Numbered from the stretch's first letter, positions 6,633 to 28,871 are shown. The stretch: 28,871 nucleotides of DNA from a virus (IMGVR_UViG_3300045988_059318:1-28871); one strand, 5' to 3'. Numbers and translations are program-made. Notes: a model not told the origin generated them from the letters alone.

Positions 6633-6697
6633 TAGTGTTAGAATCAGTGTAGAGCAATAAAGCCCCGTAAGGACGCTCAAAACGTAAGGAAATAGGA

Positions 6698-8458: not shown

Positions 8459-8471
8459 CGATAAGTGACGG

Positions 8472-8505
8472 GGGTAGGGTCGTAACCCTACCCATCTCGT
8501 TTTTA
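8472..8505 (+). terminator. Rho-independent terminator after the capsid gene
   Basis: GGGTAGGGT-cgta-ACCCTACCC is followed by ATCTCGTTTTT. Confidence 0.75.
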
Positions 8506-8515
8506 AGGATTAGAT

Positions 8516-8731: not shown

Positions 8732-8746
8732 ACAGGTAAAATAGTA

Positions 8747-8777
8747 GGGGTATCCCAATATGTGGGATACCCCTTTT
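8747..8777 (+). terminator. Rho-independent terminator
   Basis: GGGGTATCCCA-atatg-TGGGATACCCC is followed by TTTT. Confidence 0.7.
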
Positions 8778-8795
8778 CGCATATTTGGAGGAAAA

Positions 8796-10564: not shown

Positions 10565-10611
10565 GAACTAAGCAGAAAACGATAATCATTCTCAATAAGG
10601 AGTAACACAAT

Positions 10612-11190: not shown

Positions 11191-11198
11191 GGACAAAC

Positions 11199-11567
11199 AT
11201 GATGAGTGAAGAAGCTCCCGGAACCGTTGTCATTGACACGCGCGAACAAACCGAAGCGCACACGTTGAAACTGATTACCAGCGAACACCCCGAAGGCGTT
11301 GTATTCACCGTTAATCCGATGGGCGCGGGCACCTACCTTAAGTTCGCGGATAAGGTCAAGGCGCTGCAAGCATTGCAGCAGCAGGATACCAGCGGCAAGC
11401 AACTGCTGCGCATCCAATCCGACTTGTGCAAGCTGCTCATCCCCCTCGTAACCCCTAACGAGGAGTTCTCAACGTGGATTAGCGACGCAGAACGTAAGTA
11501 TCCTCTCGCCTTCCAAGCGGTGATGCAGCAGATTATGCGCTTCGTTTTCGGCAGAGCCTACTTCTAA
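11199..11567 (+). CDS. Tail assembly chaperone (gpG-like)
   Basis: Position between the major tail protein and the tape measure. The product is acidic. Confidence 0.55.
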   Translation: MMSEEAPGTVVIDTREQTEAHTLKLITSEHPEGVVFTVNPMGAGTYLKFADKVKALQALQQQDTSGKQLLRIQSDLCKLLIPLVTPNEEFSTWISDAERKYPLAFQAVMQQIMRFVFGRAYF

Positions 11568-11584
11568 AAACAGGGGTTTAGTCG

Positions 11585-11929
11585 ATGGCGGTGCATAAGG
11601 TCATTGACGATTTCACGCCGGAGCAACTGGCAAAACTCAAGGCAATCAAGGCTAAGAGTGGGGCTGGGGCTTCGGCGTTTTATCGTGATAACGAGATGCT
11701 ACTGGCTGAGTTCGGCAAATACTACGGGTGGCAGGCCGTATGTGACGTACTGGCCGACAGAGTGACATACGAGACGTTCATAGCCCTACTCAACGCCGGT
11801 CGCGCCATGCGGCTCCGTGAGCGTATCGAGTCCACGCAGGACATGGCCGCCGCAATCGGGGCAACGTTCAGCAAAAAACCGGAACAGTCATTGCGTAAAT
11901 ATCTGAAGGAATTGGAGAAGGGAATTTAA
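11585..11929 (+). CDS. Second tail assembly chaperone-like protein (separate ORF)
   Basis: Lies directly upstream of the tape measure. It is in the -1 frame relative to 11199-11567, but a TAG at 11579-11581 blocks read-through. Confidence 0.5.
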   Translation: MAVHKVIDDFTPEQLAKLKAIKAKSGAGASAFYRDNEMLLAEFGKYYGWQAVCDVLADRVTYETFIALLNAGRAMRLRERIESTQDMAAAIGATFSKKPEQSLRKYLKELEKGI

Positions 11930-14329: not shown

Positions 14330-15048
14330 AATTGAGAATCATTTTCAATAACACTGATTTGGCTACCGTCCTACCTGACACCGTGCTCTATATCGGTAAC
14401 GTTACTGGCCGTGAGTTCGTCAGCCCGGACGTGACCACGGTAGCGTACAAGGGCGCGCACGGTAGCCGATTCGTAGGCAATCGTTATCCCGCGCGTGATA
14501 TTCAAGTGGAAGTAACCGTTATCGGCTACTGCTTTCAGATGATGCCATCTTACGCGTCTAAGCTTATGAGCGTGCTTGCTACCGACGTGACCGCTAGTCT
14601 GTCTTTCAGTGACCAAGAGGGCACGTATCAGGCTATCGTAAGCGCGATTGACTTGGAAGAGCATGAGACTTACGCGAATGGCACTATCACGTTCACATGT
14701 CCTGACCCGTTCCGTCATGGTGGCATGTATGATATTGATTTCGACACGCTCCCGACTGACACGTTGCACACCAATTACAATGTGGAACCGGTTTTTAATC
14801 TGGTCGTAAACAAGTCCGCCAACAATTTCAGCATTAATGTTAACGGCGACGTGCTCACCTTGGATATGCAAGTCGCTCAAGGTGACGTGATAGTGATCAA
14901 CAGCGAGACACACACTGTCACCGTCAATAACAAGCTCACAGTATTGGAAACGTCCGGCACGTTCCCGAAATTGAAGCAGACTGGGAACGCGATTAGTTTC
15001 TCCCCTGAATGCGTCGGCAATGGTTCGTATACTGCGAGGTGGCTATGA
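14326..15048 (+). CDS. Distal tail protein (Dit)
   Basis: Follows the tape measure with a GTGA overlap. It is 240 aa, the typical size for a siphovirus Dit. Confidence 0.6.
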   Translation: MKLRIIFNNTDLATVLPDTVLYIGNVTGREFVSPDVTTVAYKGAHGSRFVGNRYPARDIQVEVTVIGYCFQMMPSYASKLMSVLATDVTASLSFSDQEGTYQAIVSAIDLEEHETYANGTITFTCPDPFRHGGMYDIDFDTLPTDTLHTNYNVEPVFNLVVNKSANNFSINVNGDVLTLDMQVAQGDVIVINSETHTVTVNNKLTVLETSGTFPKLKQTGNAISFSPECVGNGSYTARWL

Positions 15049-16826
15049 TGCTGGCAGAAGACACTATTACCCTTGTGGGGTTGCAGGGTCATGAACTCCG
15101 CACGCTCAGCCCACGCGCGGAATGGACGTTTGATCAGCGTTCCGACTCGACTAATCAGCTCACCGTCACTGTTGGCACGAATGAAGCAACCGACGTTGTT
15201 GGGGACATGGAACTATTATTCCAGCACCGTCGATTTGTCATTAACGAAGTGAATCGCACGCGCGATAATGAGACGTGTGAGATTGTCGCGGATGAAGCGC
15301 AGGCTGAAATGGCTTCAATCGAGGTTGAGTCATTCCAAGTTGAAAAGGCGAAGTTGAGCGCGGCAGTCACGCAATTGCTTTCCAACACGCTTTGGACGGT
15401 TGGAACGATTGAGGATGACACGCGTACGATTTACGCCGATCTTCAAGGCAAAAAGGTCACGGAATTGTTGACGTGGTTGGCTAATCAGTCTAACCAAGTA
15501 TTGTCTTTCGATTCCGCCCAGCGTAAAGTCTCATTCGTTAAACGGGATATGACACCTTCCGGTGTCGTGTTCAACTATGACGTGAACATGGCGAACATTA
15601 AGAAGACTGAGACGCCGCCGACCTGCACCGTCCTGCACCCTATCGGCGCCAACGGGCTGACTGTGGCAAACGTGAATCATGGCAGTGAATTGGTGGAAGA
15701 TTTCGGCTGGTACACGTCACTCGGCATGAGTGAGAATGAGGCACGTGCTCGATTCACGAAACGGCAGGAATGGCAGGACGAACGTTACACCGTCGTGCAG
15801 AATCTACTAGATGACGCGAGGAAGAAACTCTCCGTGTCCGCCTACCCAACGCTATCTTACGATTTGACAGCTGTTGACGATATCAGCGATTTACGTTTAG
15901 GCCAGCAAGCATATGTTTGGGATAATGTGCTTGACGTGCGCGTGTTGACAACGGTTAGTGTTATCCACACGTCCAGCGTGCACGATGACGATAGTGTGAC
16001 ATTGGATTACGTGCCACCATCGTTCACCATTGCGACCGATGATACTACCGGAGATACGACGTCCACGACGGAGGCTACCGTATTCCAAGCATTCAACGAC
16101 ACGGAATATACGCTAGGTGATACGGCCACACGCGTACTACCCTTGAGCATCAATGTCTACTCGGATACTATGCTTGAGTGTAATCTATGTCTCACTGTTA
16201 AAACCACGACGGCGGGACTGCTCGAAGGATATTTCCTTTTGAACGGTGAAAAGGCTGGGCCGCGTATCATGCAGACATGCGCGGAAGGGTATGTCACTAT
16301 CGGCCTTCCGTTCTTGATCACGAACGTGAGCAGTAACGACCAGACAACGCTTGACTTGTATCTGAAGCATGGTGGTGCTGGTAGTCTCGCTATCAATGAC
16401 GCGCAAATCTATATCAGTGCTAAGGGCGCGTATGGTGGTATCACTAACGAACGTCCTGACAGGCGCGTGGTTGACGCTGTGGAACGTTTTAAACGCGAAT
16501 GGCGTAACGTTGAGGATACGACGTCTATCATGTTCCCGGAACGCAACGACACTACTGTTGCTGAAACTGTGGAACGGTTCAAGACGGAATGGCGTGAAAC
16601 TGAAGACGTTGTTAATCCGATTGTGTGGCTTGAGGATAAGACGCTCACAATCACTAACGCCGAGGATGATACCGTGTTTACGCTTATCCTGCCGGACAAG
16701 AGTCAACATGAAATGCCTGCTGTTGTTGACGGGTCTACCACGTTTGACTTGAGTACGCTTGGTTTGACTGGTTCGACTAAAATTATAGTAAAGGAACTTG
16801 ACGTGAGTGTCACGGTGACGCTTTGA
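15045..16826 (+). CDS. Tail-associated protein (Tal-like) with a C-terminal extension
   Basis: Follows Dit with an ATGA overlap. ATG 15045 is preferred over track start 15009. The C-terminal part contains a 29-aa tandem repeat. Confidence 0.55.
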   Translation: MMLAEDTITLVGLQGHELRTLSPRAEWTFDQRSDSTNQLTVTVGTNEATDVVGDMELLFQHRRFVINEVNRTRDNETCEIVADEAQAEMASIEVESFQVEKAKLSAAVTQLLSNTLWTVGTIEDDTRTIYADLQGKKVTELLTWLANQSNQVLSFDSAQRKVSFVKRDMTPSGVVFNYDVNMANIKKTETPPTCTVLHPIGANGLTVANVNHGSELVEDFGWYTSLGMSENEARARFTKRQEWQDERYTVVQNLLDDARKKLSVSAYPTLSYDLTAVDDISDLRLGQQAYVWDNVLDVRVLTTVSVIHTSSVHDDDSVTLDYVPPSFTIATDDTTGDTTSTTEATVFQAFNDTEYTLGDTATRVLPLSINVYSDTMLECNLCLTVKTTTAGLLEGYFLLNGEKAGPRIMQTCAEGYVTIGLPFLITNVSSNDQTTLDLYLKHGGAGSLAINDAQIYISAKGAYGGITNERPDRRVVDAVERFKREWRNVEDTTSIMFPERNDTTVAETVERFKTEWRETEDVVNPIVWLEDKTLTITNAEDDTVFTLILPDKSQHEMPAVVDGSTTFDLSTLGLTGSTKIIVKELDVSVTVTL

Positions 16827-18040
16827 AAGTGAGAGGAAATATTTTGAACGAGTCAGTGGAACGGTTGAATATCATGCCGCACGTGAAAGGTCACGTGGCC
16901 GTGGATGTGATGGAGGACGAGCGGATTGTAGACCATGCGGAGCATGATAATTATGTTAGCCCGTTCGTCTATAACGCGTTACGCAAGTATGTCAACGCGC
17001 AATTCATGATGTTGCATGATGGAACGAAATTGTATCAGAATGGTTCTGATTTTCCACAGTGTGCGCTTAATAGCGCGTTTATCCTGACCGACTACGCGGG
17101 GCCTGTAAACACTCGGGAACGTGTGATTCACGGCACTCCACTGAGTTACGGCTTTCATCAGTACGTGTCGAATAATGCTAACGAGTGTAGCTTCAACCAA
17201 GACGAATCATATCGCAAGGCGAACTCGTTGCGTTTCGTGTTTGATTTTTCAACCTCGCAAGGGAACGGCACTTTCCAAAGTATTTATAGTGGCCCCTCCA
17301 CGAATAATCCAGCCTATAAGGCTGGATACGAACTTTTGACAGGTTATAATGTTCGTTGGACAGTGACTTACTGTGATGGAAAAATTTATACTCCGGACAC
17401 TGATAGACTTATCGCCTTCACGGTTGATGATTGGATTACACGACTTAACGGTGATACGTGGAATAGTCAAACCGTGCAAGTCCCTAACGCCGGATTAAAC
17501 AACAGGACATCTTTAACCGCGTATAATCATTCCATTTATTGGGCTAACAGGCAGTCTATTTACAGTGCGCCGGTGTCTGACCTGACTGACGTGACAACAC
17601 ATAATATCGGAGATTATTGTCAATCGATTTCTTACTCCGCAATTCGTGACTCGTTTTTCATCCTCTTCCAAAATGAGGTCAGGGAGTATTCGACTTCTTT
17701 TCAGCTTAAGAAAACTTTCACCGGCGATTATGGTTATTATATTTCTGCCATGCCGGAGGAAAACAGTGTCCTGCTCGATAATCGCGTATATGAGGTTGAC
17801 GATAATGCTAACACGTTGAAACCATGCGCACGATGGGAGTCCCTCTCACCGTTTGACTGCATGACGTTCATAGGCGATTTCGCTCTAGCCTATGGCGGCG
17901 AGTACGCGTTTACCGGGCTGTACTTGGGTTCGCAGTATTTCAGTCGTGCCCGACTCGATAAGCCCGTAACCAAAAATAGTAGGCAGACTATGAAAATCAC
18001 GTATGATTTCAACCTGCCCCCGATTGATTGGGAGCATTGA
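16823..18040 (+). CDS. Putative receptor-binding / baseplate protein
   Basis: This is the last structural ORF before the lysis genes. I recognise no motif, and the start is uncertain (TTG 16823 or ATG 16874). Confidence 0.4.
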   Translation: MKVRGNILNESVERLNIMPHVKGHVAVDVMEDERIVDHAEHDNYVSPFVYNALRKYVNAQFMMLHDGTKLYQNGSDFPQCALNSAFILTDYAGPVNTRERVIHGTPLSYGFHQYVSNNANECSFNQDESYRKANSLRFVFDFSTSQGNGTFQSIYSGPSTNNPAYKAGYELLTGYNVRWTVTYCDGKIYTPDTDRLIAFTVDDWITRLNGDTWNSQTVQVPNAGLNNRTSLTAYNHSIYWANRQSIYSAPVSDLTDVTTHNIGDYCQSISYSAIRDSFFILFQNEVREYSTSFQLKKTFTGDYGYYISAMPEENSVLLDNRVYEVDDNANTLKPCARWESLSPFDCMTFIGDFALAYGGEYAFTGLYLGSQYFSRARLDKPVTKNSRQTMKITYDFNLPPIDWEH

Positions 18041-18339
18041 TGGAGACGGCATTATTGTGCGCCATCCTCGGCAGTCAGACGGTGACTATTCTCGTGCAAT
18101 GGGTGTTGAGCAAAATCGATGCGAAACGCAACCCATTACGCGAGGGTGTGAAAGAACTCTTGTTCTGCAAACTGAAACAGTTTGACGAACAACGGGAGCA
18201 TAACGGGTTCGTGCCCATCGCGGACAAGGAAACTGTTGAACGCGTCTACACCGCCTACCATGCTTTAGGTGGTAATGGTGTGGGCACTGAGATAACTAAC
18301 AAGATTCGTACTTGCGCAAGCAGTAGGGAGGGAAAATGA
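18040..18339 (+). CDS. Single-pass membrane protein, putative holin or lysis accessory protein
   Basis: An N-terminal hydrophobic helix (METALLCAILGSQTVTILVQWVL) is followed by a charged region. It lies directly upstream of the endolysin and overlaps it. Confidence 0.45.
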   Translation: METALLCAILGSQTVTILVQWVLSKIDAKRNPLREGVKELLFCKLKQFDEQREHNGFVPIADKETVERVYTAYHALGGNGVGTEITNKIRTCASSREGK

Positions 18340-19574
18340 AACAAAAGCCGAAACATAAGCGGTTTAAGCGGAGCATGGTCAGGCCGGTTACCGGTTTGGC
18401 GTTGAGTGCGACTATTATGCTTTCGCCTAGCGTGGCGTTGGCGAACATGAATGGAGTGGACGTGAGCGGATGGCAACCCGCGAACATCACGCGCACCATT
18501 CCGGCTGATTTCGCTATCGTCAAGGCAACCGAGGGTGTGGACTTCACTAACACTTCGTGGGTTAGCCAGATTACTGGCGCTATCGAAACCGGGAAGATTC
18601 ATGGGTTGTACCATTATGCGAATGGTGGCAGTGCAGGTGCGGAAGCCGACTACTTCGTTAACACGGTAGGCTCTTATGTTGGTCGTTCTATGCTTGTATT
18701 GGATTGGGAGAGTTACCGTAATGTCTCGTGGGGGAATGGTAATTGGGTGCGTCAGTGGGTTAATCGCGTGCATGACCGGACTAGTGTCTGGCCTGTGGTT
18801 TATGTGCAAGCTTCTGCCGTGTGGCAGATTCCGCAGGACGTGCGCCAACATTGCATGCTGTGGAAGGCACAGTATGCGAGCAATGCCGTCACTGGCTATC
18901 AGTCTCAGCCGTGGAATGCTGGCAGTGCAGGTGAGGGTATGTTGCAATACACGTCTCACGGTATGTTGAGTGGCTATAATGGTTTTCTTGACCTTGACTT
19001 GTTCTTCGGGGATAAGACCGCGTGGGGGCGTATTGCCTGTGGTGAGCGTAGTGGGTGTGTGCCTAATTCGTTTGCTAATACTGGCACCACTACCACGGTG
19101 AAGCATGATACGCCGAACACTACGTCTAATGGTGATGTGAATCAGATGGCGAACGACGTTATCGCGGGCAGATACGGTAATGGCGCGACACGCAAGGCTT
19201 TGCTGGGCGGTTATTATGATTCGGTTATGAGGATTGTTAATAATCGTCTTGGATGTGGTACGTCTCAATCGTCTGCGCAATGCGTTTACGTCCAGTCTGG
19301 TGACACGTTGAGTTCGATTGCATCACGCTATGGTGGTAGTTGGACTGAGTGGACGGGCTACCGTTCCGGCAATCCGAACATCATTTATGCGGGTGAGCGT
19401 GTATGCCGTCGAGGGACTAACGTTTCCACCGGTGGAGCACGTCGTTACACTGTCCGGTCTGGTGACACGTTGAGCGGTATCGCGGCGCGATATAAGATTA
19501 ATATGAGTCAGATTAAGGGTTATCGTTCAGGCAATCCTAACGTGATTTATCCGGGCGAAACCTTGTACTGGTGA
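18336..19574 (+). CDS. Endolysin: signal peptide + GH25 muramidase + two LysM domains
   Basis: The N-terminus is MKQKPKHKRFKRSMVRPVTGLALSATIMLSPSVALA. The GH25 motif is GVDVSGWQ...AIVKATEG...GLYHYA. The LysM repeats are YVQSGDTLSSIASRYG... and YTVRSGDTLSGIAARYK... Confidence 0.85.
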   Translation: MKQKPKHKRFKRSMVRPVTGLALSATIMLSPSVALANMNGVDVSGWQPANITRTIPADFAIVKATEGVDFTNTSWVSQITGAIETGKIHGLYHYANGGSAGAEADYFVNTVGSYVGRSMLVLDWESYRNVSWGNGNWVRQWVNRVHDRTSVWPVVYVQASAVWQIPQDVRQHCMLWKAQYASNAVTGYQSQPWNAGSAGEGMLQYTSHGMLSGYNGFLDLDLFFGDKTAWGRIACGERSGCVPNSFANTGTTTTVKHDTPNTTSNGDVNQMANDVIAGRYGNGATRKALLGGYYDSVMRIVNNRLGCGTSQSSAQCVYVQSGDTLSSIASRYGGSWTEWTGYRSGNPNIIYAGERVCRRGTNVSTGGARRYTVRSGDTLSGIAARYKINMSQIKGYRSGNPNVIYPGETLYW

Positions 19575-19586
19575 TTGGAGTAAATT

Positions 19587-19886
19587 ATGGATATTACTCA
19601 GGCTGAGACTATCGCGGTTGCTATCGTCGGTTTGGTTGCTCCCGTGTTCGTGCAGGTTGTTAAACCTGTTCTGCCGGATAACATGACCGCCTTGTTTAGT
19701 CTCGCGGTCAGTGTCGTGCTGGGTATGTTGGCTATCGCGGCTGTGGGCGGGTTCAACCACGGTTATACGTGGAGTGTACTGCTTGTTGCCGTGATTGGTG
19801 TGTCGCAGACGGTTTACACTGTTGTCAATCAGGTGATGGGCGGCAAGCTTGGCAAAATGTTTGTTGACGAAAATACGTTGGCCTAG
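19587..19886 (+). CDS. Holin (multi-pass membrane protein)
   Basis: The product is 99 aa with three hydrophobic segments (IAVAIVGLVAPVFVQVV, LFSLAVSVVLGMLAIAAVGG, VLLVAVIGVSQTVYTVV). It lies next to the endolysin. Confidence 0.65.
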   Translation: MDITQAETIAVAIVGLVAPVFVQVVKPVLPDNMTALFSLAVSVVLGMLAIAAVGGFNHGYTWSVLLVAVIGVSQTVYTVVNQVMGGKLGKMFVDENTLA

Positions 19887-19892
19887 TATAAT
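19864..19892 (+). promoter_or_regulatory. Near-consensus sigma-70 promoter TTGACG-N17-TATAAT inside the last codons of the holin gene
   Basis: TTGACG lies at 19864-19869, followed by an exact 17-nt spacer and TATAAT at 19887-19892. Confidence 0.45.
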
Positions 19893-19896
19893 GTGG

Positions 19897-19984
19897 AGTG
19901 CTGAAAGTTTTGGCGATTGACTTTTAGTGCTGTCATTGATAAGCCGCACGGTTTTCTTTCACCGTGCGGCTTCTCCTTTTTTTT
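19897..19984 (+). ncRNA. Candidate small RNA (~85 nt): 12-bp G.U-containing hairpin plus terminator hairpin
   Basis: It lies downstream of the orphan promoter. Arms 19897-19908 and 19920-19931 pair with three G.U wobbles, which are valid only in the plus-strand RNA. The terminator at 19941-19984 follows. Confidence 0.35.
19941..19984 (+). terminator. Strong terminator at the convergence of the two arms
   Basis: AAGCCGCACGGT-tttctttc-ACCGTGCGGCTT is followed by CTCC and T8. The T-tract exists only for the plus strand. On the minus strand the same hairpin follows the HNH stop without a U-tract. Confidence 0.8.
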
Positions 19985-20688: not shown

Positions 20689-20711
20689 GTTTTATTTCTT
20701 TCATTAGTGGT

Positions 20712-20733
20712 GCCCCGCCCGCAAGGGCGGGGC
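20712..20733 (-). repeat. GC hairpin copy A: GCCCCGCCC-loop-GGGCGGGGC
   Basis: A 9-bp perfect stem with a 4-nt loop (TTGC in the sense orientation, inverted relative to copies B, C and E). It lies 8 nt after the stop of 20742-20978 and 24 nt before ATG 20688. Confidence 0.9.
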
Positions 20734-20741
20734 GGGTGGTG

Positions 20742-20978
20742 TCAGTCGCAGAGTTCTTCAATCTGTGCTTCATATGTGGTGTCATAGCTGGTTTCATGGA
20801 ACTTGTTGACACGCCCGAACGTGAAACCGTATTTGCGTTCACATTTGCGACGTATTGAACGGAGAATGTTCTTTGTTTCCACCGCTTCACTGTGGAACGT
20901 GTAGAAGGCGTCAAGTTTCGGGATGTCGATGGTTTGTTTTCCGTCGAAGTAGCTGATGTTGATTGTTGCGGTGTTCAT
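20742..20978 (-). CDS. Cassette ORF S1 (78 aa), paralog of 25203-25451
   Basis: Driven by leader L1. It shares MNTA.I, Y.FHSEAVE.KN, GFTFGRV and YEAQI/YEAEI with S4. Confidence 0.65.
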   Translation of the reverse strand: MNTATINISYFDGKQTIDIPKLDAFYTFHSEAVETKNILRSIRRKCERKYGFTFGRVNKFHETSYDTTYEAQIEELCD

Positions 20979-21045
20979 TTTGATTTGTCCTTCCTTGTTT
21001 GGTTGATAGTTTTATAATACATCACTATTGAGTGCGACACGCCGA
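20976..21045 (-). promoter_or_regulatory. Conserved leader L1 (promoter-like element, RBS and start codon)
   Basis: In the sense orientation it reads TCGGCGTGTCGCACTCAATAGTGATGTATTATAAAACTATCAACCAAACAAGGAAGGACAAATCAAAATG. It is 70 nt from ATG to motif end, as in L2. Confidence 0.6.
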
Positions 21046-21308
21046 CGTTCGACAAACACACCCCAACACATCGGATACTTCAATGGCACCAACCGGGACA
21101 CGCGATAATCAGCGCCATAACGCACTTCAGCAAGCCGAGCAATAACCGCGTGCGCTCTCTCCCTTGCTTCGGCAACCCGCTTATCATAGCCACGTTTGCG
21201 TTTCTCCCAACCGTTGCTAGTCCTCTCATACACCTCCCATACGACACCGTTTTCCGAATAATGAGACTGCGCACGATAGTCGTAAGCGTCAACGTTCCTA
21301 TATTTCAC
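21012..21308 (-). CDS. Hypothetical protein (98 aa)
   Basis: The start is GTG, preceded by GGGGGA. The 3' end runs through the L1 motif. Confidence 0.5.
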   Translation of the reverse strand: MKYRNVDAYDYRAQSHYSENGVVWEVYERTSNGWEKRKRGYDKRVAEARERAHAVIARLAEVRYGADYRVSRLVPLKYPMCWGVFVERRRVALNSDVL

Positions 21309-21826: not shown

Positions 21827-21849
21827 TGTAGATTCCTTTCATTGGTGGT

Positions 21850-21871
21850 GCCCCGCCCTTGCGGGCGGGGC
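21850..21871 (-). repeat. GC hairpin copy B
   Basis: GCCCCGCCC-GCAA-GGGCGGGGC in the sense orientation. It lies 18 nt after the stop of S2 and 24 nt before ATG 21826. Confidence 0.9.
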
Positions 21872-21889
21872 GTCGATATTTTGACAAGC

Positions 21890-22114
21890 TTAAAAACCGT
21901 ATGCGCATTCGGCTTCGGAGAGCTCTTCCATGTGCTGTTCAATTCGATGCATCGGGTTAACATTTGAGATTATCAGGTAGTTGTATATTTTAGAAATATT
22001 GCCTGTGGACATTGCCGTGTGCGCGTAGTGTTCCCACAGACTGTTAGCGAGTGGATTATCAACATTGTTGAAATCGACGTGATGTGTAATGTTTTCGAGG
22101 TAAACGTATGACAT
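21890..22114 (-). CDS. Cassette ORF S2 (74 aa)
   Basis: ATG 22114 is placed by leader L2 (AAGGAAGGACAAAACAAAATG). The track start at 22201 would read through the leader. Confidence 0.6.
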   Translation of the reverse strand: MSYVYLENITHHVDFNNVDNPLANSLWEHYAHTAMSTGNISKIYNYLIISNVNPMHRIEQHMEELSEAECAYGF

Positions 22115-22181
22115 TTTGTTTTGTCCTTCCTTGTTTGGTTGATAATTACATAATACACTACTTGCGGACACGACACGCCGA
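22112..22181 (-). promoter_or_regulatory. Conserved leader L2
   Basis: In the sense orientation it reads TCGGCGTGTCGTGTCCGCAAGTAGTGTATTATGTAATTATCAACCAAACAAGGAAGGACAAAACAAAATG. It follows a terminator directly. Confidence 0.6.
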
Positions 22182-22228: not shown

Positions 22229-22507
22229 TCAACGACTGCAATACGCTAAGCACTGCACCTCAAGCGCATCCACATGGCGATAACACACCCCGTCGAACAC
22301 GAAAAAAGGCGCGCTAGAATACTTGTGAGACTTGCGCAGTGTCCAGTAACGGCTATTCCCCGGCTGAACGACCATGAGTGCAATCATAATGCCCGTTTTC
22401 TTCTTGATTCGCACCACCATTTTTCGTAGTTCGTCAATCAACTCACGGTGTTTACATCCAGCGCAATCGTCGAAGACCGCGTAAATGACACGTCGTGAAA
22501 TGCTCAC
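22229..22507 (-). CDS. Thioredoxin-fold / glutaredoxin-like protein
   Basis: VIYAVFDDCAGCKHRELIDEL (strand-CxxC-helix) and APFFVFDG (cis-Pro strand) are present. The GTG start forms a GTGA overlap. Confidence 0.45.
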   Translation of the reverse strand: MSISRRVIYAVFDDCAGCKHRELIDELRKMVVRIKKKTGIMIALMVVQPGNSRYWTLRKSHKYSSAPFFVFDGVCYRHVDALEVQCLAYCSR

Positions 22508-23391
22508 CAGTCTACACCTCCCAGTTTTTGCAGTTCGTCAATGAGAGTTAACGTCTGCAATTCTTTTGTCTCCTGTGCTTCGATTTCACTTGCAACACTC
22601 CGCCGGTCAACCGCGAACACCTCATGTTGCAAACTGCCATACACCCTATCATCGAACATGGTGAAATACACCGTTTGCAAGTCAGGGTTAACGACAAAAT
22701 ACTGCAACACTTGAGCTTGATACTGTTCGGGGATGAAGTCGAACTCTCGACGCGATTCTAGAATCTCCGGGAAGAGTTTGAGCGCCAACGACTGCAATTC
22801 ATCGCGTTGACTATTCGGAGTTTCCGAATCGTTGAGCATCTGGAATACGCGGAATGGAACAACCGTTTGGAGATGGTATTTCGTGCCCAGGCTTTTCGCT
22901 TCGAACGCGAACGTGGGATTATATTCCAGCCCGTTAATGTCGATTTGCGGCTTGGTGTGAGCGTCAGGACTGACCGCAATACGGTCGTCCACGTCACTTA
23001 CCCACATTCCAGTATCGAATTCCACAATGTCAGTGGGAATGTCAAGTTTCTCGCACGCCATCATGATGTTAGTGTTTTCCAAACGGTGGCCGCGCTCCAT
23101 TGGCGGTTCCCCGTCCGGCTGTTCCGCGATCATGTCGGCAAGAAACTGCCAAAAGTCGAGGTTGACTTTCAACCGTTCGTTATCTCGTTTGGCTTGTTCG
23201 GCTTTCACTCTGTATTCTTCGGCCTTTTCTTCGGTCTTTGCCTTGTCTGCCATGGCTTCGAGCTTGGCTACGTCCTTTTGGGCGTAATGTTCGAGCGCGA
23301 GTGTTCCGGCTTTGGTGCCAGTGATTTTGCCAATTCTGGCGTCTAACCATGCTTGCGTGTCCTGTGTTTGCGAAACGTTTAGGATCTTCAT
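22504..23391 (-). CDS. YqaJ-like (lambda Exo-type, PD-(D/E)XK) recombination exonuclease
   Basis: The N-terminus QTQDTQAWLDARIGKITGTKAGTL plus GHRLEN ... SPDAH ... FEAKS gives the catalytic pattern. Confidence 0.75.
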   Translation of the reverse strand: MKILNVSQTQDTQAWLDARIGKITGTKAGTLALEHYAQKDVAKLEAMADKAKTEEKAEEYRVKAEQAKRDNERLKVNLDFWQFLADMIAEQPDGEPPMERGHRLENTNIMMACEKLDIPTDIVEFDTGMWVSDVDDRIAVSPDAHTKPQIDINGLEYNPTFAFEAKSLGTKYHLQTVVPFRVFQMLNDSETPNSQRDELQSLALKLFPEILESRREFDFIPEQYQAQVLQYFVVNPDLQTVYFTMFDDRVYGSLQHEVFAVDRRSVASEIEAQETKELQTLTLIDELQKLGGVDW

Positions 23392-23392: not shown

Positions 23393-23800
23393 TTAGTTTT
23401 CCTTCCTTACCGGTAATCCGTCTTCCGTGGTGGCGAGCGTGTATGCTTTCAGCAGTGTGCCCGCTATTTTTTGACGTCGTGCGGGCGGGATGCGTCGGAA
23501 CTTGTTTTCCCAATGCGCGACTTGGCATTGCCGTACACCGTACATTTTCGCCATTTCACGCTGGCTGATGCCGAACGCGTTGCGCAAATATTTCAATAAT
23601 TCGCTATCATCCAAAGAGTCAAGATAAATATTCCGACTGTTGACGGTGCGGAGATTGTTTTCATGGTCGAGTGTGAATAGGTTGCCGGTTTTTGACTGGA
23701 CAAGGTAGGCGTAAACGTCTTCTTTGATTCTGTATGTTCGCTCTCCGGCGACGGTTTTGAATGTGATGGGCATGGCTCCCGGCCATAGTGTGAGTCTCAT
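23393..23800 (-). CDS. XRE-type helix-turn-helix regulator with an unknown N-terminal domain
   Basis: The C-terminal LRNAFGISQREMAKMYGVRQCQVAHWENKFRRIP is a classic HTH_3-like motif. Confidence 0.65.
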   Translation of the reverse strand: MRLTLWPGAMPITFKTVAGERTYRIKEDVYAYLVQSKTGNLFTLDHENNLRTVNSRNIYLDSLDDSELLKYLRNAFGISQREMAKMYGVRQCQVAHWENKFRRIPPARRQKIAGTLLKAYTLATTEDGLPVRKEN

Positions 23801-24075: not shown

Positions 24076-24097
24076 TATTGTTCCTTTCGTTAGATGG

Positions 24098-24119
24098 TGC
24101 CCCGCCCTTGCGGGCGGGG
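24098..24119 (-). repeat. GC hairpin copy C
   Basis: GCCCCGCCC-GCAA-GGGCGGGGC in the sense orientation. It lies 12 nt after the S3 stop and 23 nt before ATG 24075. Confidence 0.9.
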
Positions 24120-24131
24120 CTGTGGTTTGGT

Positions 24132-24326
24132 TTAGAGTGCGTGTTCCTTGAGCAGTTCGGTGAACTCGTCGGTGTCTACCTGTTCATAATCGGTGTAGCC
24201 GTTCATGTCGCAGATGGTGCGAAGGTCTTTCGCGGCTCCGTAGGTGTCCCAATTGCCGTCATCCTGTCCGCTGTTTTGGATGTAGTTGACGATGTAGGCT
24301 TCTGCTGTGCTGAGGTTGATTTCCAT
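24132..24326 (-). CDS. Cassette ORF S3 (64 aa), strongly acidic
   Basis: Driven by leader L3. By hand count it has about 14 Asp/Glu against 3 Lys/Arg. Confidence 0.65.
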   Translation of the reverse strand: MEINLSTAEAYIVNYIQNSGQDDGNWDTYGAAKDLRTICDMNGYTDYEQVDTDEFTELLKEHAL

Positions 24327-24390
24327 TTTGTTTGTCCTTTCCTTGGTCGGTAATTACATAATACAATAGTTTTGATCACGACACGCCGGA
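24324..24390 (-). promoter_or_regulatory. Conserved leader L3
   Basis: It is 67 nt from ATG to motif end. By hand alignment, 59 of 67 positions are identical to L4/L5. It contains GTATTAT followed by the palindrome GTAATTAC. Confidence 0.6.
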
Positions 24391-24558
24391 CTAGAAACAA
24401 TCCATGACAACGAAACCCATACCCGCCAAACCAATAAGGATATCAGCCAATGCGAGAAGAATCATATAACTATCCTCACACCACAACGCCACCCCCAAAG
24501 CAACAGCGGACACAATCGTAAGCGCCAAGAAACCGCAGAATATAGCAACCTTTTTCAC
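24391..24558 (-). CDS. Small two-helix membrane protein (55 aa), not in the ORF track
   Basis: The GTG start is preceded by GGGAGG and forms a GTGA overlap with the ERF stop. The product reads MKKVAIFCGFLALTIVSAVALGVALWCEDSYMILLALADILIGLAGMGFVVMDCF. Confidence 0.45.
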   Translation of the reverse strand: MKKVAIFCGFLALTIVSAVALGVALWCEDSYMILLALADILIGLAGMGFVVMDCF

Positions 24559-25148
24559 TTATTGCCTCCCTTACTGATAGCCTGACGGAGAAGCATAACG
24601 TCATGTTCGGTCAAGTCCTGAGGCTTACGCACCTCATGGCCGAACTGCGATGCCAAAGCGTTGACGTAAAACCCTAGATTGGTTCCAGCGGCCTGAGCCA
24701 TGTCGTTAAGATCGTTGACTTCCTGTGCCGTGGCCTTCCGTGGTTGTTGTGGTGCAGAATAGTCGCGCATGGCGGCACCGTCATCGTCCTTGTCGGGGAA
24801 GATACCAAGAGCGGCGTAGAGGGAGTAGCGTCGCGCGTAGGTTACTGCGGAGCCGATTGCCTGCGGGTCGGGCACCACCACGAAGGGGTAGTCCCCCACA
24901 TTCAAGGTTTTTTCAGCGTCGAAAATGATTGTTTCGACCGTGCCGTAGCTCACTTTGTCTCCTACCGCACCCATGCGCACCACCTGCCGGAAGGCTAAAT
25001 CATACTTGGCGAAAATAGGCTTGATGGTCTTGAGAATGGTAGCAAGATTAAGGTACTTGTAGGTGCGTTGCCCGGCGTTGGCTATCAGGTCGGTGACGAA
25101 GTTGGGGACTTCGTTGAGTACTGCCATATATTTTTCTTCGAGTTTCAT
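24555..25148 (-). CDS. erf: ERF-family single-strand annealing protein
   Basis: YKYLNLATILKTIKPIFAKYDLAFRQ ... QAIGSAVTYARRYSLYAALGIFPDKDDDG is the ERF core signature. ATG 25148 is placed by hairpin D geometry. Confidence 0.8.
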   Translation of the reverse strand: MKLEEKYMAVLNEVPNFVTDLIANAGQRTYKYLNLATILKTIKPIFAKYDLAFRQVVRMGAVGDKVSYGTVETIIFDAEKTLNVGDYPFVVVPDPQAIGSAVTYARRYSLYAALGIFPDKDDDGAAMRDYSAPQQPRKATAQEVNDLNDMAQAAGTNLGFYVNALASQFGHEVRKPQDLTEHDVMLLRQAISKGGNK

Positions 25149-25170
25149 TATTGTTCCTTTCATTAATGGT

Positions 25171-25192
25171 GCCCCGCCCTTGCTGGCGGGGC
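25171..25192 (-). repeat. GC hairpin copy D (one mismatch at the loop-closing pair)
   Basis: GCCCCGCC-AGCAAG-GGCGGGGC in the sense orientation. It lies 10 nt after the S4 stop and 23 nt before ATG 25148. Confidence 0.9.
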
Positions 25193-25202
25193 GGGTGGTT
25201 GT

Positions 25203-25451
25203 TTAAAGATATTTTATTTCTGCCTCGTAGACTGCGCACTGGTCTAATCCTTGACGCCATGTGAAATCGTCTACAAGGCAGACTCGACCGAACGTGAAAC
25301 CTTCGTCGCGCTTGAGGATGTTGCGCATGTTTGCCAATTGGTTTTTAATTTCCACTGCTTCGCTGTGGAATTCGTAGACTTCTCCGGTTTCTTTGATTAC
25401 GAGACGTTGTGTGCAGATGCGATGGTTGAGGTAGATGATTGCGGTGTTCAT
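25203..25451 (-). CDS. Cassette ORF S4 (82 aa), paralog of 20742-20978
   Basis: Driven by leader L4. It shares sequence blocks with S1. Confidence 0.65.
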   Translation of the reverse strand: MNTAIIYLNHRICTQRLVIKETGEVYEFHSEAVEIKNQLANMRNILKRDEGFTFGRVCLVDDFTWRQGLDQCAVYEAEIKYL

Positions 25452-25515
25452 TTTCTTTGTCCTTTCCTTGGTCTGTAATTACATAATACATTATTGTTGA
25501 GTGCGACACGCCGGA
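25445..25515 (-). promoter_or_regulatory. Conserved leader L4 (71 bp identical to L5)
   Basis: Bases 25445-25515 equal 27835-27905 base for base. The block includes the motif TCCGGCGTGTCG, GTATTAT, the palindrome TGTAATTACA, the RBS AAGGAAAGGA and ATGAACA. Confidence 0.65.
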
Positions 25516-25934
25516 CGCGGTAGAATCTCGCCCAACCGACTCAACCCCCTAGCGGTCTCAAGACCACGGAACCGTTTAGCGGACTGTGCGGCTTCATCGA
25601 GACTACGCCCACTCAACCGGTTACGCCGATACTCCCAACTCGCATCACCCTCAATGCCAAGCGCGGCCATCTCACGCGTAATGTCGACTTCGGAAGGCTT
25701 ATGGTCACGTTTCCACCTACGCCAAAACGCATTGAGGTCGGCGGGCATGAGATACGGGCGCTTCTTCGCGTATTCCGGGTTTGCGAAAAATTGGCGTATG
25801 GCTTCTTTCGCCACGTCTAATCGCATGTCAGTTGCTAACGCTTCCATCCATGCGGCCACCTGCATATCGGTCACAAGACGATTATCAAAGGCGCTGGCAT
25901 AGGTTAGGAGTGCTTGCACTTGCAACTTGTTCAT
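25491..25934 (-). CDS. Hypothetical protein (147 aa)
   Basis: An operon ORF with an ATGA overlap upstream. The 3' end reads through the L4 motif. I recognise no family. Confidence 0.55.
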   Translation of the reverse strand: MNKLQVQALLTYASAFDNRLVTDMQVAAWMEALATDMRLDVAKEAIRQFFANPEYAKKRPYLMPADLNAFWRRWKRDHKPSEVDITREMAALGIEGDASWEYRRNRLSGRSLDEAAQSAKRFRGLETARGLSRLGEILPRPACRTQQ

Positions 25935-26344
25935 TTCAATTCATCCTTATATTCCACTTGCATTAATTTCACGACTTTCACCATGCCGTCCAAGTCACTT
26001 TTTCTAAGGTATCGCCAGAAGAGACCTTCCGTATAGGTGGTGGCTTGGTGTGCAAGGTCTAACATGTTGTCCATGTAGAGACAGCACTTACCCACTTGCG
26101 TGAGGTTGTGCGCGTCCAATGGTTTGCCATCAATTTGCAGACGGCATTTCTCGTCATTGTCGATAGCCCTCTGTAGATACCATTCTGCTTTCTGCAAGTC
26201 TTCAAGCGGATGTCCCTTGAGTCTATACCGCCACACGTATTTTATTGCGTTGCCTACGCAAAAGCTGTGGTATTGCGCGACTTCGATGCATTCGCAAGGT
26301 TTCGTGTTGTCGGTGTAGTGTGCTGGATGATTAACGTTGTCCAT
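25931..26344 (-). CDS. DUF3310-family phage protein
   Basis: NHPAHYT...CECIEV...GNAIKYVWRYRLKG.PLEDLQKAEWYLQRAI matches the DUF3310 signature as I recall it. Confidence 0.65.
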   Translation of the reverse strand: MDNVNHPAHYTDNTKPCECIEVAQYHSFCVGNAIKYVWRYRLKGHPLEDLQKAEWYLQRAIDNDEKCRLQIDGKPLDAHNLTQVGKCCLYMDNMLDLAHQATTYTEGLFWRYLRKSDLDGMVKVVKLMQVEYKDELK

Positions 26345-26356
26345 GATTGTTTCCTT

Positions 26357-26764
26357 TCAGAATTGCGGTGTGATTGAGTCCAGAAAATCGTCAAGGTAAA
26401 GGATGAAGTCTTCTTGCATTGAATCGTGTGGCTGTGGCTGATAGTCCGCATGTAGCCATTGGATGCCACTGGACATTTTCATCCACTTAATACCGGCAAG
26501 ATACACGAGTATCGTATTGTTGACTTTATCAATCGTCCAGTCTGAGGGAGCCACAACGTCCATCATGTAACTTTTAGATTGGGCTCCGCTTCTCTGTCGG
26601 TTTTCTAAGCCTTTCCATGCTGAGAGCCATACGCGGTAGCGGGCTATTTTGGGGTTGTCTTGTATGGTTAGTGCGGTTTCGAATATTGCCGTGTCTTTTG
26701 TCTTGTCGCACTCAACGACGGAATGCATGTCGTACGGTGGTATATCGTTGAATAGTGTCAGCAT
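26357..26764 (-). CDS. Hypothetical protein (135 aa)
   Basis: The start lies 23 nt after GC hairpin E. I recognise no motif. Confidence 0.55.
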   Translation of the reverse strand: MLTLFNDIPPYDMHSVVECDKTKDTAIFETALTIQDNPKIARYRVWLSAWKGLENRQRSGAQSKSYMMDVVAPSDWTIDKVNNTILVYLAGIKWMKMSSGIQWLHADYQPQPHDSMQEDFILYLDDFLDSITPQF

Positions 26765-26786
26765 TTTATTTTCCTTTCAGTTGGGT

Positions 26787-26808
26787 GCCCCGCCCTTGCG
26801 GGCGGGGC
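26787..26808 (-). repeat. GC hairpin copy E (no cassette ORF upstream)
   Basis: GCCCCGCCC-GCAA-GGGCGGGGC in the sense orientation. It is preceded by about 137 nt with no convincing ORF. Confidence 0.9.
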
Positions 26809-26945
26809 GATAACGTCAGATTGCTTGACGGAAATTGGATATTTCGTCGTTATGGTGCTTTACCGTCTCGACGTATTTCAAGGCTTCCTCGTATCCGGAG
26901 TAAGTAAACTCTGGTGGGGTTAATTAATTGCGTAGTCGCATGACC

Positions 26946-27299
26946 TTAGTCTGCGAGTACCGCTAATATGCTGCTCTCACAGTCCGGTCTTGGTAGTGGC
27001 TGCAATACGCCCATATCCTCATAGTACTGGTTCAATGCTGGCATGCTTGTTTGCATGTCCGGGTTGTCGGAATCGTAGAAGACTGTTGAGCGGAGGTATG
27101 GCGAGTATTTATCATATCGCAAGTGCAGTGGGCAGAAGAATCTCGGCTCATTATCACCGGTGAACAGGCACAGCCATTCTTCTTCGTAGATTATGTTCTC
27201 GACTGCGTCTTCCGTGCTTGACGCCCAGAAGTCGTAGGACATGTGGCAGTCTGGGTAGTCGCATTTTGCCAAGTAGGTTGTTTTCACTCTCATGCTCAT
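26946..27299 (-). CDS. Hypothetical Cys/His-containing protein (117 aa)
   Basis: CDYPDCH ... CPLH is a possible metal-binding motif. There is an ATGA overlap with the upstream gene. Confidence 0.55.
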   Translation of the reverse strand: MSMRVKTTYLAKCDYPDCHMSYDFWASSTEDAVENIIYEEEWLCLFTGDNEPRFFCPLHLRYDKYSPYLRSTVFYDSDNPDMQTSMPALNQYYEDMGVLQPLPRPDCESSILAVLAD

Positions 27300-27520
27300 T
27301 CGACGCTCCTTTCGGCTTCGCGCATGATGTGCCGCATGTCGGCATCGGTCAGCTTAGCTAGTGTCAGGTTGGCACCGGCCAAGTCTACGCCTGTCAGGCC
27401 TGCGCCTGTCAGTTCTGCGCCTCCCATGTCTGCGCCGCGTAGGCATCTGCGCCCGTATTTTTCGAGTATTTCTTCGATGTTGTCGCCTTCGAGTGTGGCT
27501 GTTGGTGTTTTAATTTTCAT
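27296..27520 (-). CDS. Pentapeptide-repeat protein (74 aa)
   Basis: GADMGGAELTGAGLTGVDLAGANLTLAKLTDADM contains consecutive A(D/N)LXX-type pentapeptides. A strong RBS (GAAAGGAAAGGA) precedes the gene. Confidence 0.7.
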   Translation of the reverse strand: MKIKTPTATLEGDNIEEILEKYGRRCLRGADMGGAELTGAGLTGVDLAGANLTLAKLTDADMRHIMREAERSVE

Positions 27521-27548
27521 TATGGTTCCTTTCCTTTCTGTTGATTGT

Positions 27549-27560
27549 GGGGGGGGGGGG
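27549..27560. repeat. Homopolymer G12 (C12 in the sense strand) in the 5' UTR of the pentapeptide-repeat gene
   Basis: Counted directly. It lies 29 nt upstream of ATG 27520. It can pair with GGGGG (sense strand, 27573-27577) to give a variant hairpin where the GC hairpin sits in the other cassettes. Confidence 0.9.
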
Positions 27561-27589
27561 ATTGTGCGGTTGCCCCCGCCGCTATAGTG

Positions 27590-27841
27590 TCACCACGTCT
27601 GCGCGAACTGTTCGACCTGCTCGGCGCTGAAGGTCTTGGCGGGGTCACGGTAGTCTTCGTCGGCTGTGGTGAAGGCGTAGGACGTGTAGTAGGCGTTGCC
27701 TTCGTCGTCGACGGCCTGATCGCGGTCGATGCTCTCCCAGCTGCCGCCTTCCTCTTTGGCTTCGATCGTATAGTCCTCGCTCATCCAGTAGTGGTAGAGG
27801 TCGGCGTAGGTGCTGGTCTTGGTGAATTCGATGCTGTTCAT
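27590..27841 (-). CDS. Cassette ORF S5 (83 aa), strongly acidic
   Basis: Driven by leader L5. It is rich in Asp/Glu/Tyr (EDYTIEAKEEGG, DDEGNAYY, ADEDYRD) with few basic residues. Confidence 0.65.
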   Translation of the reverse strand: MNSIEFTKTSTYADLYHYWMSEDYTIEAKEEGGSWESIDRDQAVDDEGNAYYTSYAFTTADEDYRDPAKTFSAEQVEQFAQTW

Positions 27842-27905
27842 TTTCTTTGTCCTTTCCTTGGTCTGTAATTACATAATACATTATTGTTGAGTGCGACACG
27901 CCGGA
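27835..27905 (-). promoter_or_regulatory. Conserved leader L5 (71 bp identical to L4)
   Basis: See L4. A second copy of the motif CGACACGCCGGA lies at 27941-27952, inside the 3' end of the replisome organizer gene. Confidence 0.65.
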
Positions 27906-27931: not shown

Positions 27932-28696
27932 TCACGGACGCGACACGCCGGACTCAATCTGAAAGCCGAAGAGGTCAGTTTGCGACTGCATCGCTTGAGT
28001 GAGATTCTGCATGTTCCTTTCCGCGTTCGTGACGGGCTTGCGGGCTTGTGGCGGGTCTGGACGGTATTCGTCATTCCATCGTTCGCCGTTAAGCCATGTT
28101 GCGAAATTGGGGATAAACCGGGTTTCCGTGTTGGCGCACTGTGCGGCAAATGCTTGCACCTTGGCCATGAGAAAGGCGCTGTTAATGCCTACTTTTGCTT
28201 TACGCCATGCCTTGTAAGCGGCCATCTTGGCCACATGCTTGGGGTAGATTGTCCACAGTTGTTCGAATGCGTTCGGGTATTCTTCGCGCTTATGTTGCGC
28301 GGGTTCCGTCGGTGCGGGTTCGCGTGTGGGTTCTACCGTGGTAGTCGATTCTGGAGCTTGGTAAAGCGTTTTATCAAGCGTATCAGACTCAGAATGGCGC
28401 TTCACATTGTCTACGTCCATTGTGACGTGATACACATTGCTCGACGCCCCACCATTATCAAGCTTGCGACGTCTTTTGACTATAAGACCCTTATCCTCCA
28501 AGCTTTTAAGAGCTTTGAGTACGGTTGGTTTGCTTAGCAATGATTCGGCGCATAGTGTGGCGAGAGACGGGAAGCATTCGCCGCTATCGTTTGTGTGGTC
28601 GGCTAATACGAGATATACGAGCTTTTCATTAGCAGTCTCGAAGTGCTTCCCTCTGATAACCCAGTGGCGTACTGCCATAAAACCATAATCACTCAT
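27932..28696 (-). CDS. Replisome organizer / replication initiator-like protein (N-terminal winged helix)
   Basis: LVYLVLADHTNDSGECFPSLATLCAESLLSKPTVLKALKSLEDKGLI is typical of the phage replisome-organizer N-terminal wHTH. The C-terminus has YPKHVAKMAAYKAWRKA ... FATWLNGERWNDE. The gene lies next to the iterons. Confidence 0.6.
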   Translation of the reverse strand: MSDYGFMAVRHWVIRGKHFETANEKLVYLVLADHTNDSGECFPSLATLCAESLLSKPTVLKALKSLEDKGLIVKRRRKLDNGGASSNVYHVTMDVDNVKRHSESDTLDKTLYQAPESTTTVEPTREPAPTEPAQHKREEYPNAFEQLWTIYPKHVAKMAAYKAWRKAKVGINSAFLMAKVQAFAAQCANTETRFIPNFATWLNGERWNDEYRPDPPQARKPVTNAERNMQNLTQAMQSQTDLFGFQIESGVSRP

Positions 28697-28766: not shown

Positions 28767-28797
28767 CTTCAATGGTTATTCTTCAATGGTTATTCTT
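28767..28797. repeat. 14-bp tandem repeat CTTCAATGGTTATT, 2.2 copies
   Basis: Read directly. It lies between the early promoter and the 22-bp array. Confidence 0.9.
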
Positions 28798-28798
28798 A

Positions 28799-28871
28799 GT
28801 GTAAAGCTACTTTACAGAGGGTGTAAAGCTACTTTACAGAGGGTGTAAAGCTACTTTACAGAGGGTGTAAA
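28799..28871. repeat. 22-bp palindromic repeat array, continuing into bases 1-55
   Basis: GTGTAAAGCTACTTTACA lies at 28799-28816. Full units follow at 28817-28838 and 28839-28860, with a partial unit at 28861-28871. Confidence 0.95.

Follow-up and report, generated by a model that had tools for sequence, protein, structure and literature searches.

The window, meaning all 28,871 nt of the viral sequence IMGVR_UViG_3300045988_059318, comprises the whole genome of a ~29-kb phage, assembled as a circle from a human-gut metagenome (contig ENA ERZ28619439 scaffold_1349, 28,900 nt). Its minus strand, from 28,696 down to ~20,300, forms a replication/recombination arm with many small open reading frames (ORFs), and this early arm holds five copies, all on the minus strand, of a 71-nt element family, here named L1 to L5. 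Each copy has the same order of parts: a 10-bp box (CGGCGTGTCG), 14 nt, GTATTAT, a leader with AAGGAA(A)GGA, and the ATG of a small ORF. We argue that these elements are probably promoters whose box is read by a host protein, and that they also serve as recombination arms.

L5 (27835-27905) has its box at 27894-27903, TATTAT at 27873-27878 and, after a leader with a ribosome-binding site, an ATG at 27839-27841, which begins an acidic, variable ORF of 83 amino acids (aa) at 27590-27841; its family (family 6) is found in five slots among the phage's relatives (defined below). L4 (25445-25515; box 25504-25513, TATTAT 25483-25488, ATG 25449-25451) overlaps the end of the ORF at 25491-25934 and leads into a variable 82-aa ORF (25203-25451). 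L3 (24320-24390; box 24379-24388, TATTAT 24358-24363, ATG 24324-24326) precedes a 64-aa ORF (24132-24326), which is in the same slot in every relative examined, and L2 (22112-22182; box 22171-22180, TATTAT 22150-22155, ATG 22112-22114) precedes a variable 74-aa ORF (21890-22114), whose family occupies three different slots among relatives. L1 (20976-21046; box 21035-21044, TATTAT 21014-21019, ATG 20976-20978) overlaps the end of the ORF at 21012-21308 and leads into a variable 78-aa ORF (20742-20978). All of these ORFs are on the minus strand. The L1 and L4 ORFs are paralogous (..FHSEAVE.KN..GFTFGRV..), so one cassette family is present in two slots of a single genome.

In ungapped comparison, L4 and L5 match at all 71 bp (100%), and L3, L1 and L2 are 86%, 65% and 63% identical to them. 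From the start of the box to the ATG, L3-L5 measure 62 nt, and L1 and L2, whose leader is 4 nt longer, measure 66 nt. The exact box occurs six times in the window, on the minus strand only (at 21035, 22171, 24379, 25504, 27894 and 27941), and when up to one mismatch is allowed there are 10 matches, compared with 2.6 +/- 1.7 in shuffled sequences; 10 matches were reached in 0/100 shuffles. The box is asymmetric, lies at about -37 to -28 and is separated from TATTAT by exactly 15 bp, with TG preceding the -10. After the -10 come a conserved start region (GTAATTAYC) and a CA-rich, unstructured leader with a strong ribosome-binding site. Repeat and box mapping agrees with the original prediction on the five elements, their order and coordinates, the identity of L4 and L5, the resemblance of L3 to both, and L1 and L2 as a second subtype. 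The prediction had also held that the motif is translated in three reading frames and is therefore conserved as nucleic acid rather than protein, and this is confirmed by the upstream ORFs, three of which end in LPRPACRTQQ, ERRRVALNSDVL and IESGVSRP. The conservation lies at the DNA level: as RNA, the five elements fold no better than shuffled controls and are, if anything, less structured (z +0.30 to +1.51).

An IMG/VR pattern scan led to a tight family of ~30-kb relatives, and anchoring on the replication protein yielded 28 relatives at 68-95% identity. Because the next-closest proteins drop to <=35%, these relatives and the window form a genus-like cluster. To avoid circularity, sites were detected with a hidden Markov model spanning only the region from the -10 to the ATG, giving 90 unique sites in the window and the 28 relatives. 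TATTAT is invariant in 90/90 of them, and each position of the box is kept in 87-90 of the 90 (1.76-2.0 bits), a level equal to that of the -10. The 14-nt spacer is mostly at 0.4-1.35 bits (A-6, T-4 and T-1 reach ~1.8) and falls into at least six sequence types, with a length that is constant across the 90 sites. The bases 7-13 nt after TATTAT (GTAATTAYC) are nearly invariant, and nothing upstream of the box is conserved among these sites. With anchoring on GTATTAT only, the exact box was found in 111 of 162 contexts, and variant sites hold the spacing with other -10s (TATAAT, TAATAT, TATCAT, TATACT and TAGAAT). Since the spacing is invariant though the spacer sequence diverges, the sequences indicate that box and -10 are read as one unit, i.e., that they form a bipartite DNA signal, predicted to be a promoter with its box at the -35 position.

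This predicted promoter is not of the ordinary kind. Its -10 conforms to the TAnnnT/TATAAT of a sigma-70/SigA promoter, but a -35 resembling TTGACA at 16-18 bp is absent: 0/5 L elements pass a sigma-70 scan, and the best register is GTGTCG at 15 bp, a 3/6 match. We therefore rejected a canonical sigma-70 promoter, a type which is present elsewhere in the genome as TTGACA/TTGACG promoters, and the earlier observation that the motif takes the place of a -35 element without resembling TTGACA holds. The box also differs from an ordinary -35 in that vegetative promoters of Bifidobacterium breve are TTGACA-17-TATAAT (PMC5746004). Two non-promoter candidates were rejected as well. A Chi-like or recombination hot-spot motif is contradicted by the strict coupling to the -10 (besides the truncated sixth copy discussed below, one orphan box is known), and integron-like attC cassettes by the lack of any integrase found in the window.

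One small ORF, 64-139 aa long, stands behind every L element of the window and its relatives, and relatives whose fetched locus covers the arm have about 5-8 L elements each. Most of these cassettes end in a hairpin 2-18 nt after the ORF stop (GCCCCGCCC-GCAA-GGGCGGGGC; -20 to -24 kcal/mol, z about -3.6), which has no U tract and some variants of which, in relatives, show compensatory stem changes (e.g., GCCCCACCC/GGGTGGGGC). The window has five near-identical hairpins on the minus strand with a 9-bp G/C stem; their loop is a GNRA-type GCAA on the sense strand in 4/5 and inverted in 1/5. They lie at 20709-20734 (8 nt after the L1 ORF stop; the inverted loop, TTGC), 21847-21872 (18 nt after the L2 ORF stop), 24096-24121 (11 nt after that of L3), 25168-25193 (10 nt after that of L4, followed by a ribosome-binding site and the gene for an Erf-type annealing protein, 24555-25163, minus strand) and 26784-26809 (9-bp stem, GCAA loop, -23.9 kcal/mol), the last of which closes the L5 block, ahead of a ribosome-binding site and a core gene (MLTLFND...). 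Downstream of the hairpin there is thus a conserved ribosome-binding site, CACCAnTAAtGAAAGGAA, and then a syntenic core gene, which is Erf or one of four others. Because the early hairpins lack a U tract, whereas a normal U-tract terminator (19941-19972) closes the late operon, they are probably attenuators or RNA-stability elements rather than full terminators, and read-through past them would serve the syntenic core genes.

Two further features belong to the L5 block. A run of 12 G (27549-27560; 12 C on the sense strand) separates the L5 ORF from the ribosome-binding site that follows it; this is the sole cassette without a GC hairpin directly after its ORF. The run may be an assembly hotspot or a tract prone to slippage. 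The block also encodes a 74-aa pentapeptide-repeat protein (27296-27520, minus strand). Pentapeptide-repeat proteins can mimic DNA, and this one is a candidate anti-restriction or anti-defence protein.

The cassettes are exchanged among relatives. When the window was aligned with its 28 relatives, 179 of 244 breakpoints lay no more than 30 nt from an L element or hairpin, features which make up 13.5% of the arm. The relatives are not independent, so that a nominal p-value exaggerates the significance, but the clustering is evident. Of the 13 families into which the 142 L-driven first ORFs fall, five occur in 2-5 different slots. We propose that the ~70-bp L elements and the ~50-bp blocks of hairpin and ribosome-binding site act as homology arms, by which ORF cassettes would be exchanged, duplicated and deleted, and that the phage's own pair of Erf and a YqaJ/RecE-like exonuclease (22504-23391, minus strand) is a plausible catalyst. 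Such recombination would explain both the 71-bp identity of L4 and L5, which fits a recent event between modules, and the orphan sixth box. The original prediction had thus recognised the promoter architecture but missed its pairing with GC hairpins, which together frame the shuffled cassettes.

The sixth box (27941-27952 as the 12-nt motif, 27941-27950 as the 10-bp box; minus strand) lies within the last codons of the replication initiator gene rep (27932-28696, minus strand), 35 nt upstream of the 12-nt L5 motif, as had been predicted. The window has no -10 to go with it. Most relatives, however, have a full promoter at the end of rep (box-N12-TGTATAAT), which in most of those that carry it drives an ORF of ~138 aa. 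Judged by this comparison, the sixth box is a promoter truncated by a deletion that took its -10 and ORF and reached to just upstream of L5. The copy itself was therefore correctly reported earlier, and its truncation was overlooked.

The same module is found in phages with very different genomes. In about 20 contigs, 15.6-18.4 kb in length, the box precedes GTATTAT by 13 nt, in the form TGGTATTAT, with a textbook extended -10. These ~16-18 kb contigs are phi29/Av-1-like podophages with a protein-primed type B polymerase and collar proteins, and their closest isolates infect Bifidobacterium asteroides, B. dentium and Actinomyces. The sites are ~120 nt from both genome ends and read inward; by analogy with phi29, such terminal promoters would be the first to fire. 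Several podophage lineages have the same box with differing spacers and leaders, and in one lineage two divergent boxes stand back to back, each with its own -10 at 14-15 bp. The endolysin (~40% identity) is the only protein that the podophages have in common with the window by phmmer at E < 0.05. As a separate observation, podophage terminal repeats (the first ~60 nt of L048, L051, L057, L064 and other contigs) contain an inverted orphan box ~45 nt from the end, beside TTGACA, which suggests that the factor binding the box may also act at podophage replication termini.

A third type of carrier is contig L338 (ERZ1643250 NODE_227; 67.7 kb, 48% GC), in which three leftward box-N15-TAnnnT sites (TATACT, TATTAT and TAGAAT) at 10031, 5435 and 265 are each followed by a ribosome-binding site and an ORF. 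It encodes an LTA-synthase-like protein (an 847-aa protein resembling LTA-synthase/sulfatase proteins), an LPxTG protein and IS607-type TnpA/TnpB. None of its proteins is common to the window or the podophage group, and a plasmid database held no DNA match to it; it may be a plasmid, an island or a large phage.

Cultured phages gave no counterpart. BlindBasel1, the B. asteroides phage whose large terminase is 53% identical to that of the window, has no such repeat and no enrichment of the box, B. dentium phage BD811P1 has no such element, and GenBank phages contain nothing similar to the window or podophage promoter. In contig L010, a distant structural relative, the sole pattern match is part of a palindrome and was discarded; there is no repeated promoter. 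A literature search for the 10-mer returned unrelated primer sequences only.

The module also occurs on bacterial scaffolds of 60-61% GC, as box-N14-(G/A)TATTAT-GTAAATA upstream of an orthologous gene for a membrane protein of 95-97 aa. These proteins are only 45-46% identical to each other, and flanks and spacer have diverged, yet the box is 10/10 in 3/4 sequences, and TATTAT and GTAAATA are invariant; such a pattern of sequence conservation is a phylogenetic footprint. The gene sits downstream of an AI-2E transporter gene and a Fic gene. Named homologues of the transporter are all from Bifidobacteriaceae (41-46% identity), and the Ppx-GppA protein of the scaffolds has no named homologue. L324, L369 and L371-L374 are human-gut scaffolds of 60-64% GC, up to 629 kb long, whose proteins lack close named homologues, and they may represent an uncharacterised actinobacterial lineage and a possible host. 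On L372, near 8265 (minus strand), a strong GC hairpin lies within ~20 nt downstream of TGGCGTGTCG-N15-TAGAAT, with no called gene, and the site may mark a small RNA or attenuator under the same promoter class.

Taken as a whole, the observations are best explained if the L elements are promoter-plus-5'-untranslated-region cassettes with a box read by a host protein, which double as recombination arms, a reading to which we give a probability of roughly 0.6. The host's housekeeping sigma with RNA polymerase would read the -10, and a sequence-specific partner encoded by the host, either an activator or a "sigma adaptor" at the -35 position, would read the box. A special sigma is less likely for this role, and an alternative sigma seems unlikely because the -10 is of the housekeeping type. 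We infer that the reader is host-encoded, with a small regulon, because the module recurs in podophages, in the 67.7-kb element and at a chromosomal gene, none of which has a regulator in common with the phage. By copying a host promoter class, the phage would have its first genes expressed immediately on infection. Genes behind these promoters, in the window phage and the podophages alike, are small, variable and often acidic, which fits the profile of first-expressed genes, and their role would probably be host takeover or anti-defence.

The original prediction favoured a phage or alternative factor over plain sigma-70. Its non-canonical half stands; the phage factor fits poorly with a module found in unrelated podophages, a 67.7-kb element and bacterial scaffolds. 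Such a factor would be an activator or a sigma-appropriating protein made by the phage, and the L elements would be middle promoters, silent until it is made. In T4 middle promoters, a MotA box in the -30s replaces the -35 in front of a sigma-70 -10, and the phage proteins MotA and AsiA read the box; the L elements have the same architecture, with a box in the -30s, a -10 that the host sigma would read and many copies in the early/middle region. The phage also encodes an HTH_3 protein (23393-23800, minus strand), an HTH_17 protein (67-279, plus strand) and many ORFs without functional annotation, and no genome in our species-representative scan (below) has multiple copies. PHROG and Pfam scans of 20 early ORFs, many of which remained unannotated, gave no MotA/AsiA-like annotation. 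However, no protein is common to the box-bearing elements, although podophages have the module at both termini and the 67.7-kb element has three sites. Its retention at an orthologous chromosomal gene, and driven genes that look like the first to be expressed rather than middle genes, also speak for a host reader, and we regard a phage-encoded one as unlikely. It seems a little more improbable that the box is an operator for negative control, through early shut-off or a repressor like that of the mycobacteriophage L5 stoperators, with promoter strength coming from the TG-extended -10 alone. A plain or extended -10 is often sufficient for actinobacterial promoters, the asymmetric box always points the same way as transcription, and the inverted orphan box near podophage ends suggests a stand-alone DNA-binding site. 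But a repressor site has less need to be locked 14-15 bp from the -10 through all the turnover of the spacer, no integrase or immunity module was found in the window, and a box in unrelated elements and at a chromosomal gene would still demand a host protein.

Other explanations do without a DNA-binding reader altogether. If the L elements were kept only as homology arms, homogenised by recombination and gene conversion, their position at recombination junctions and the identity of L4 and L5 would follow, but gene conversion would level the spacer too, whereas at least six diverged spacer types stand beside an invariant box, and the box is kept in podophages and at the chromosomal locus where the remainder of the element differs; we think this very improbable. 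Slightly less credible again is an element acting in RNA, as a processing site, a translational leader structure or a riboregulator of read-through transcripts. The ribosome-binding site and CA-rich tract surely affect translation, and the box is probably transcribed from upstream as well, since no terminator separates the L elements from the preceding genes. We nevertheless rejected an RNA element, as the L RNAs fold worse than shuffled controls and Rfam has no match to them (its sole match was below threshold, on the other strand, at a hairpin), while the constraint on box/-10 spacing and the TAnnnT variants are features read in DNA.

Several points count against the host-read promoter cassette that we prefer. 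The chromosomal box is CGGCGTGCCG in a second sample of the host-like species, and the site is absent from two more distant scaffolds. Searching 185,579 species-representative genomes for the exact pattern (GTATTAT required) gave 78 single chance hits, e.g., one beside a Haemophilus tRNA gene, and none that was multi-copy or in a prophage, so either the host regulon is small or the host lineage is missing from this genome set. The tie of the host-like scaffolds to the phage is circumstantial, and promoter activity and start sites are deduced from sequence. Lastly, it is doubtful that the hairpins terminate transcription, because they have no U tracts.

In function, the cassettes correspond to the PeSLs (promoter-early stem-loops) of T4-type phages, modules of an early promoter and a stem-loop by which small, functionally uncharacterised genes are shuffled (Arbiol et al. 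2010, PMC2839356; Comeau et al. 2014, PMC4122927). Both systems consist of many short promoter modules with a G/C-rich stem-loop upstream of small genes, ribosome-binding site and start codon included, and both mark the places where close relatives have gained, lost or replaced sequence. PeSL modules that lie next to each other can recombine to form mini-circles, and a deletion like that between the sixth box and L5 would be an expected product of such an event. Unlike the L elements, which carry the 10-bp box for a -35, PeSL promoters match sigma-70 at both -35 and -10. The PeSL stem-loop is within or next to the promoter and acts as a terminator, whereas the hairpin in the window follows the cassette ORF and has no U tract, and the genomes are those of T4-type phages on one side and a ~29-kb siphophage-like genome with a Gram-positive host on the other.

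For the mechanism, the closest precedent is PafBC "sigma adaptation", with the consensus tGTCgg-N10-tANNNT and a box at -28 to -23 (Mueller et al. 2021, PMC8635444). These actinobacterial promoters lack a -35 and combine a housekeeping -10 with a GTC-containing box that a host factor reads, features which the L elements would share; the PafBC core, TGTCG, is found in the L box. The L elements are nevertheless not PafBC promoters as defined, and we rejected a PafBC/RecA-NDp assignment: they have TGTCG(C/T)-N14-TATTAT (N13 in podophages) instead of N10, which puts the box 3-4 bp further upstream, no TAnnnT is conserved at N9-N11 in the L sites, and the conserved CGGCG half of the box has no PafBC counterpart. 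From T4 middle promoters, the system appears to differ in that no MotA/AsiA-like protein was found among the 20 early ORFs scanned and that its spread over unrelated elements and a chromosome favours a host reader.

Short asymmetric motifs in one orientation relative to transcription are also known from actinophages, as the stoperators of mycobacteriophage L5 and the start-associated sequences of cluster K, and like the L boxes they are repeated and co-oriented, in some cases immediately upstream of start codons. Stoperators, however, are scattered apart from promoters in temperate phages, whereas L boxes are locked to a -10 in 5/6 cases in a phage with no immunity system found, and start-associated sequences sit at the ribosome-binding site, whereas the L box sits at the -35 position. 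The finding is thus a combination of known kinds, namely hybrid box-plus-(-10) promoters and PeSL-like cassettes, rather than a new category.

The rest of the genome is that of a siphophage-like phage of ~29 kb, probably with a Gram-positive, actinobacterial host. The closest isolated phages (large terminase identity 53%) have B. asteroides as host. Plus-strand genes from ~60 to 19,900 encode, besides the HTH_17 protein (from PHROG/Pfam scans), SSB, RusA, the large terminase (2937-4214), structural proteins and an endolysin with GH25, CW_7 and LysM domains (18336-19574). Relatives show that window position 28,871 is continuous with position 1. Upstream of rep, 22-bp tandem iterons (GGGTGTAAAGCTACTTTACAGA; at least 4 copies) occupy 28780-28871 and continue across this junction; the region 28780-28871 is the probable origin, and the contigs of many relatives break there. 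Also preceding rep is TTGCGC-17-TACAAT-7-ATG, which resembles a leaderless-type promoter. The plus strand has two near-consensus promoters of sigma-70 type: TTGACA-N16-TATTAT (4188-4215), where the terminase gene ends, is followed by a hairpin and is kept in relatives, and TTGACG-17-TATAAT (19864-19892) lies ~50 nt before the strong U-tract terminator of the late operon. Judging from sequence, either of these two promoters could yield a short transcript.

To our knowledge, the transcription signals used by phages of gut Actinomycetota are almost wholly uncharacterised. A more specific reading, which is possible but which we hold only tentatively, is that CGGCGTGTCG-N14/15-TAnnnT represents a promoter class, not described before, that belongs to an uncultured gut lineage of high GC related to Bifidobacteriaceae and is served by a dedicated host sigma adaptor or activator at ~-33. 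It would then have been copied independently, for immediate expression, by three or more unrelated mobile elements, namely a genus of siphophages, several lineages of phi29-like podophages and the 67.7-kb element, and in the siphophage it would also be the homology arm of PeSL-like shuffling. If this is true, it would be the first PeSL-like shuffling system described outside T4-type phages. The pairing of L elements with hairpins shows that early accessory genes are shuffled by way of regulatory cassettes, as so far described for T4-type myophages, in small siphophages of Gram-positive hosts too, and the small ORFs between promoter and hairpin are therefore good candidates for anti-defence or host-takeover genes. 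The box offers a bait with which to isolate its reader, a portable marker tying uncultured phages to a host lineage, and a ready-made strong promoter module for genetic tools.

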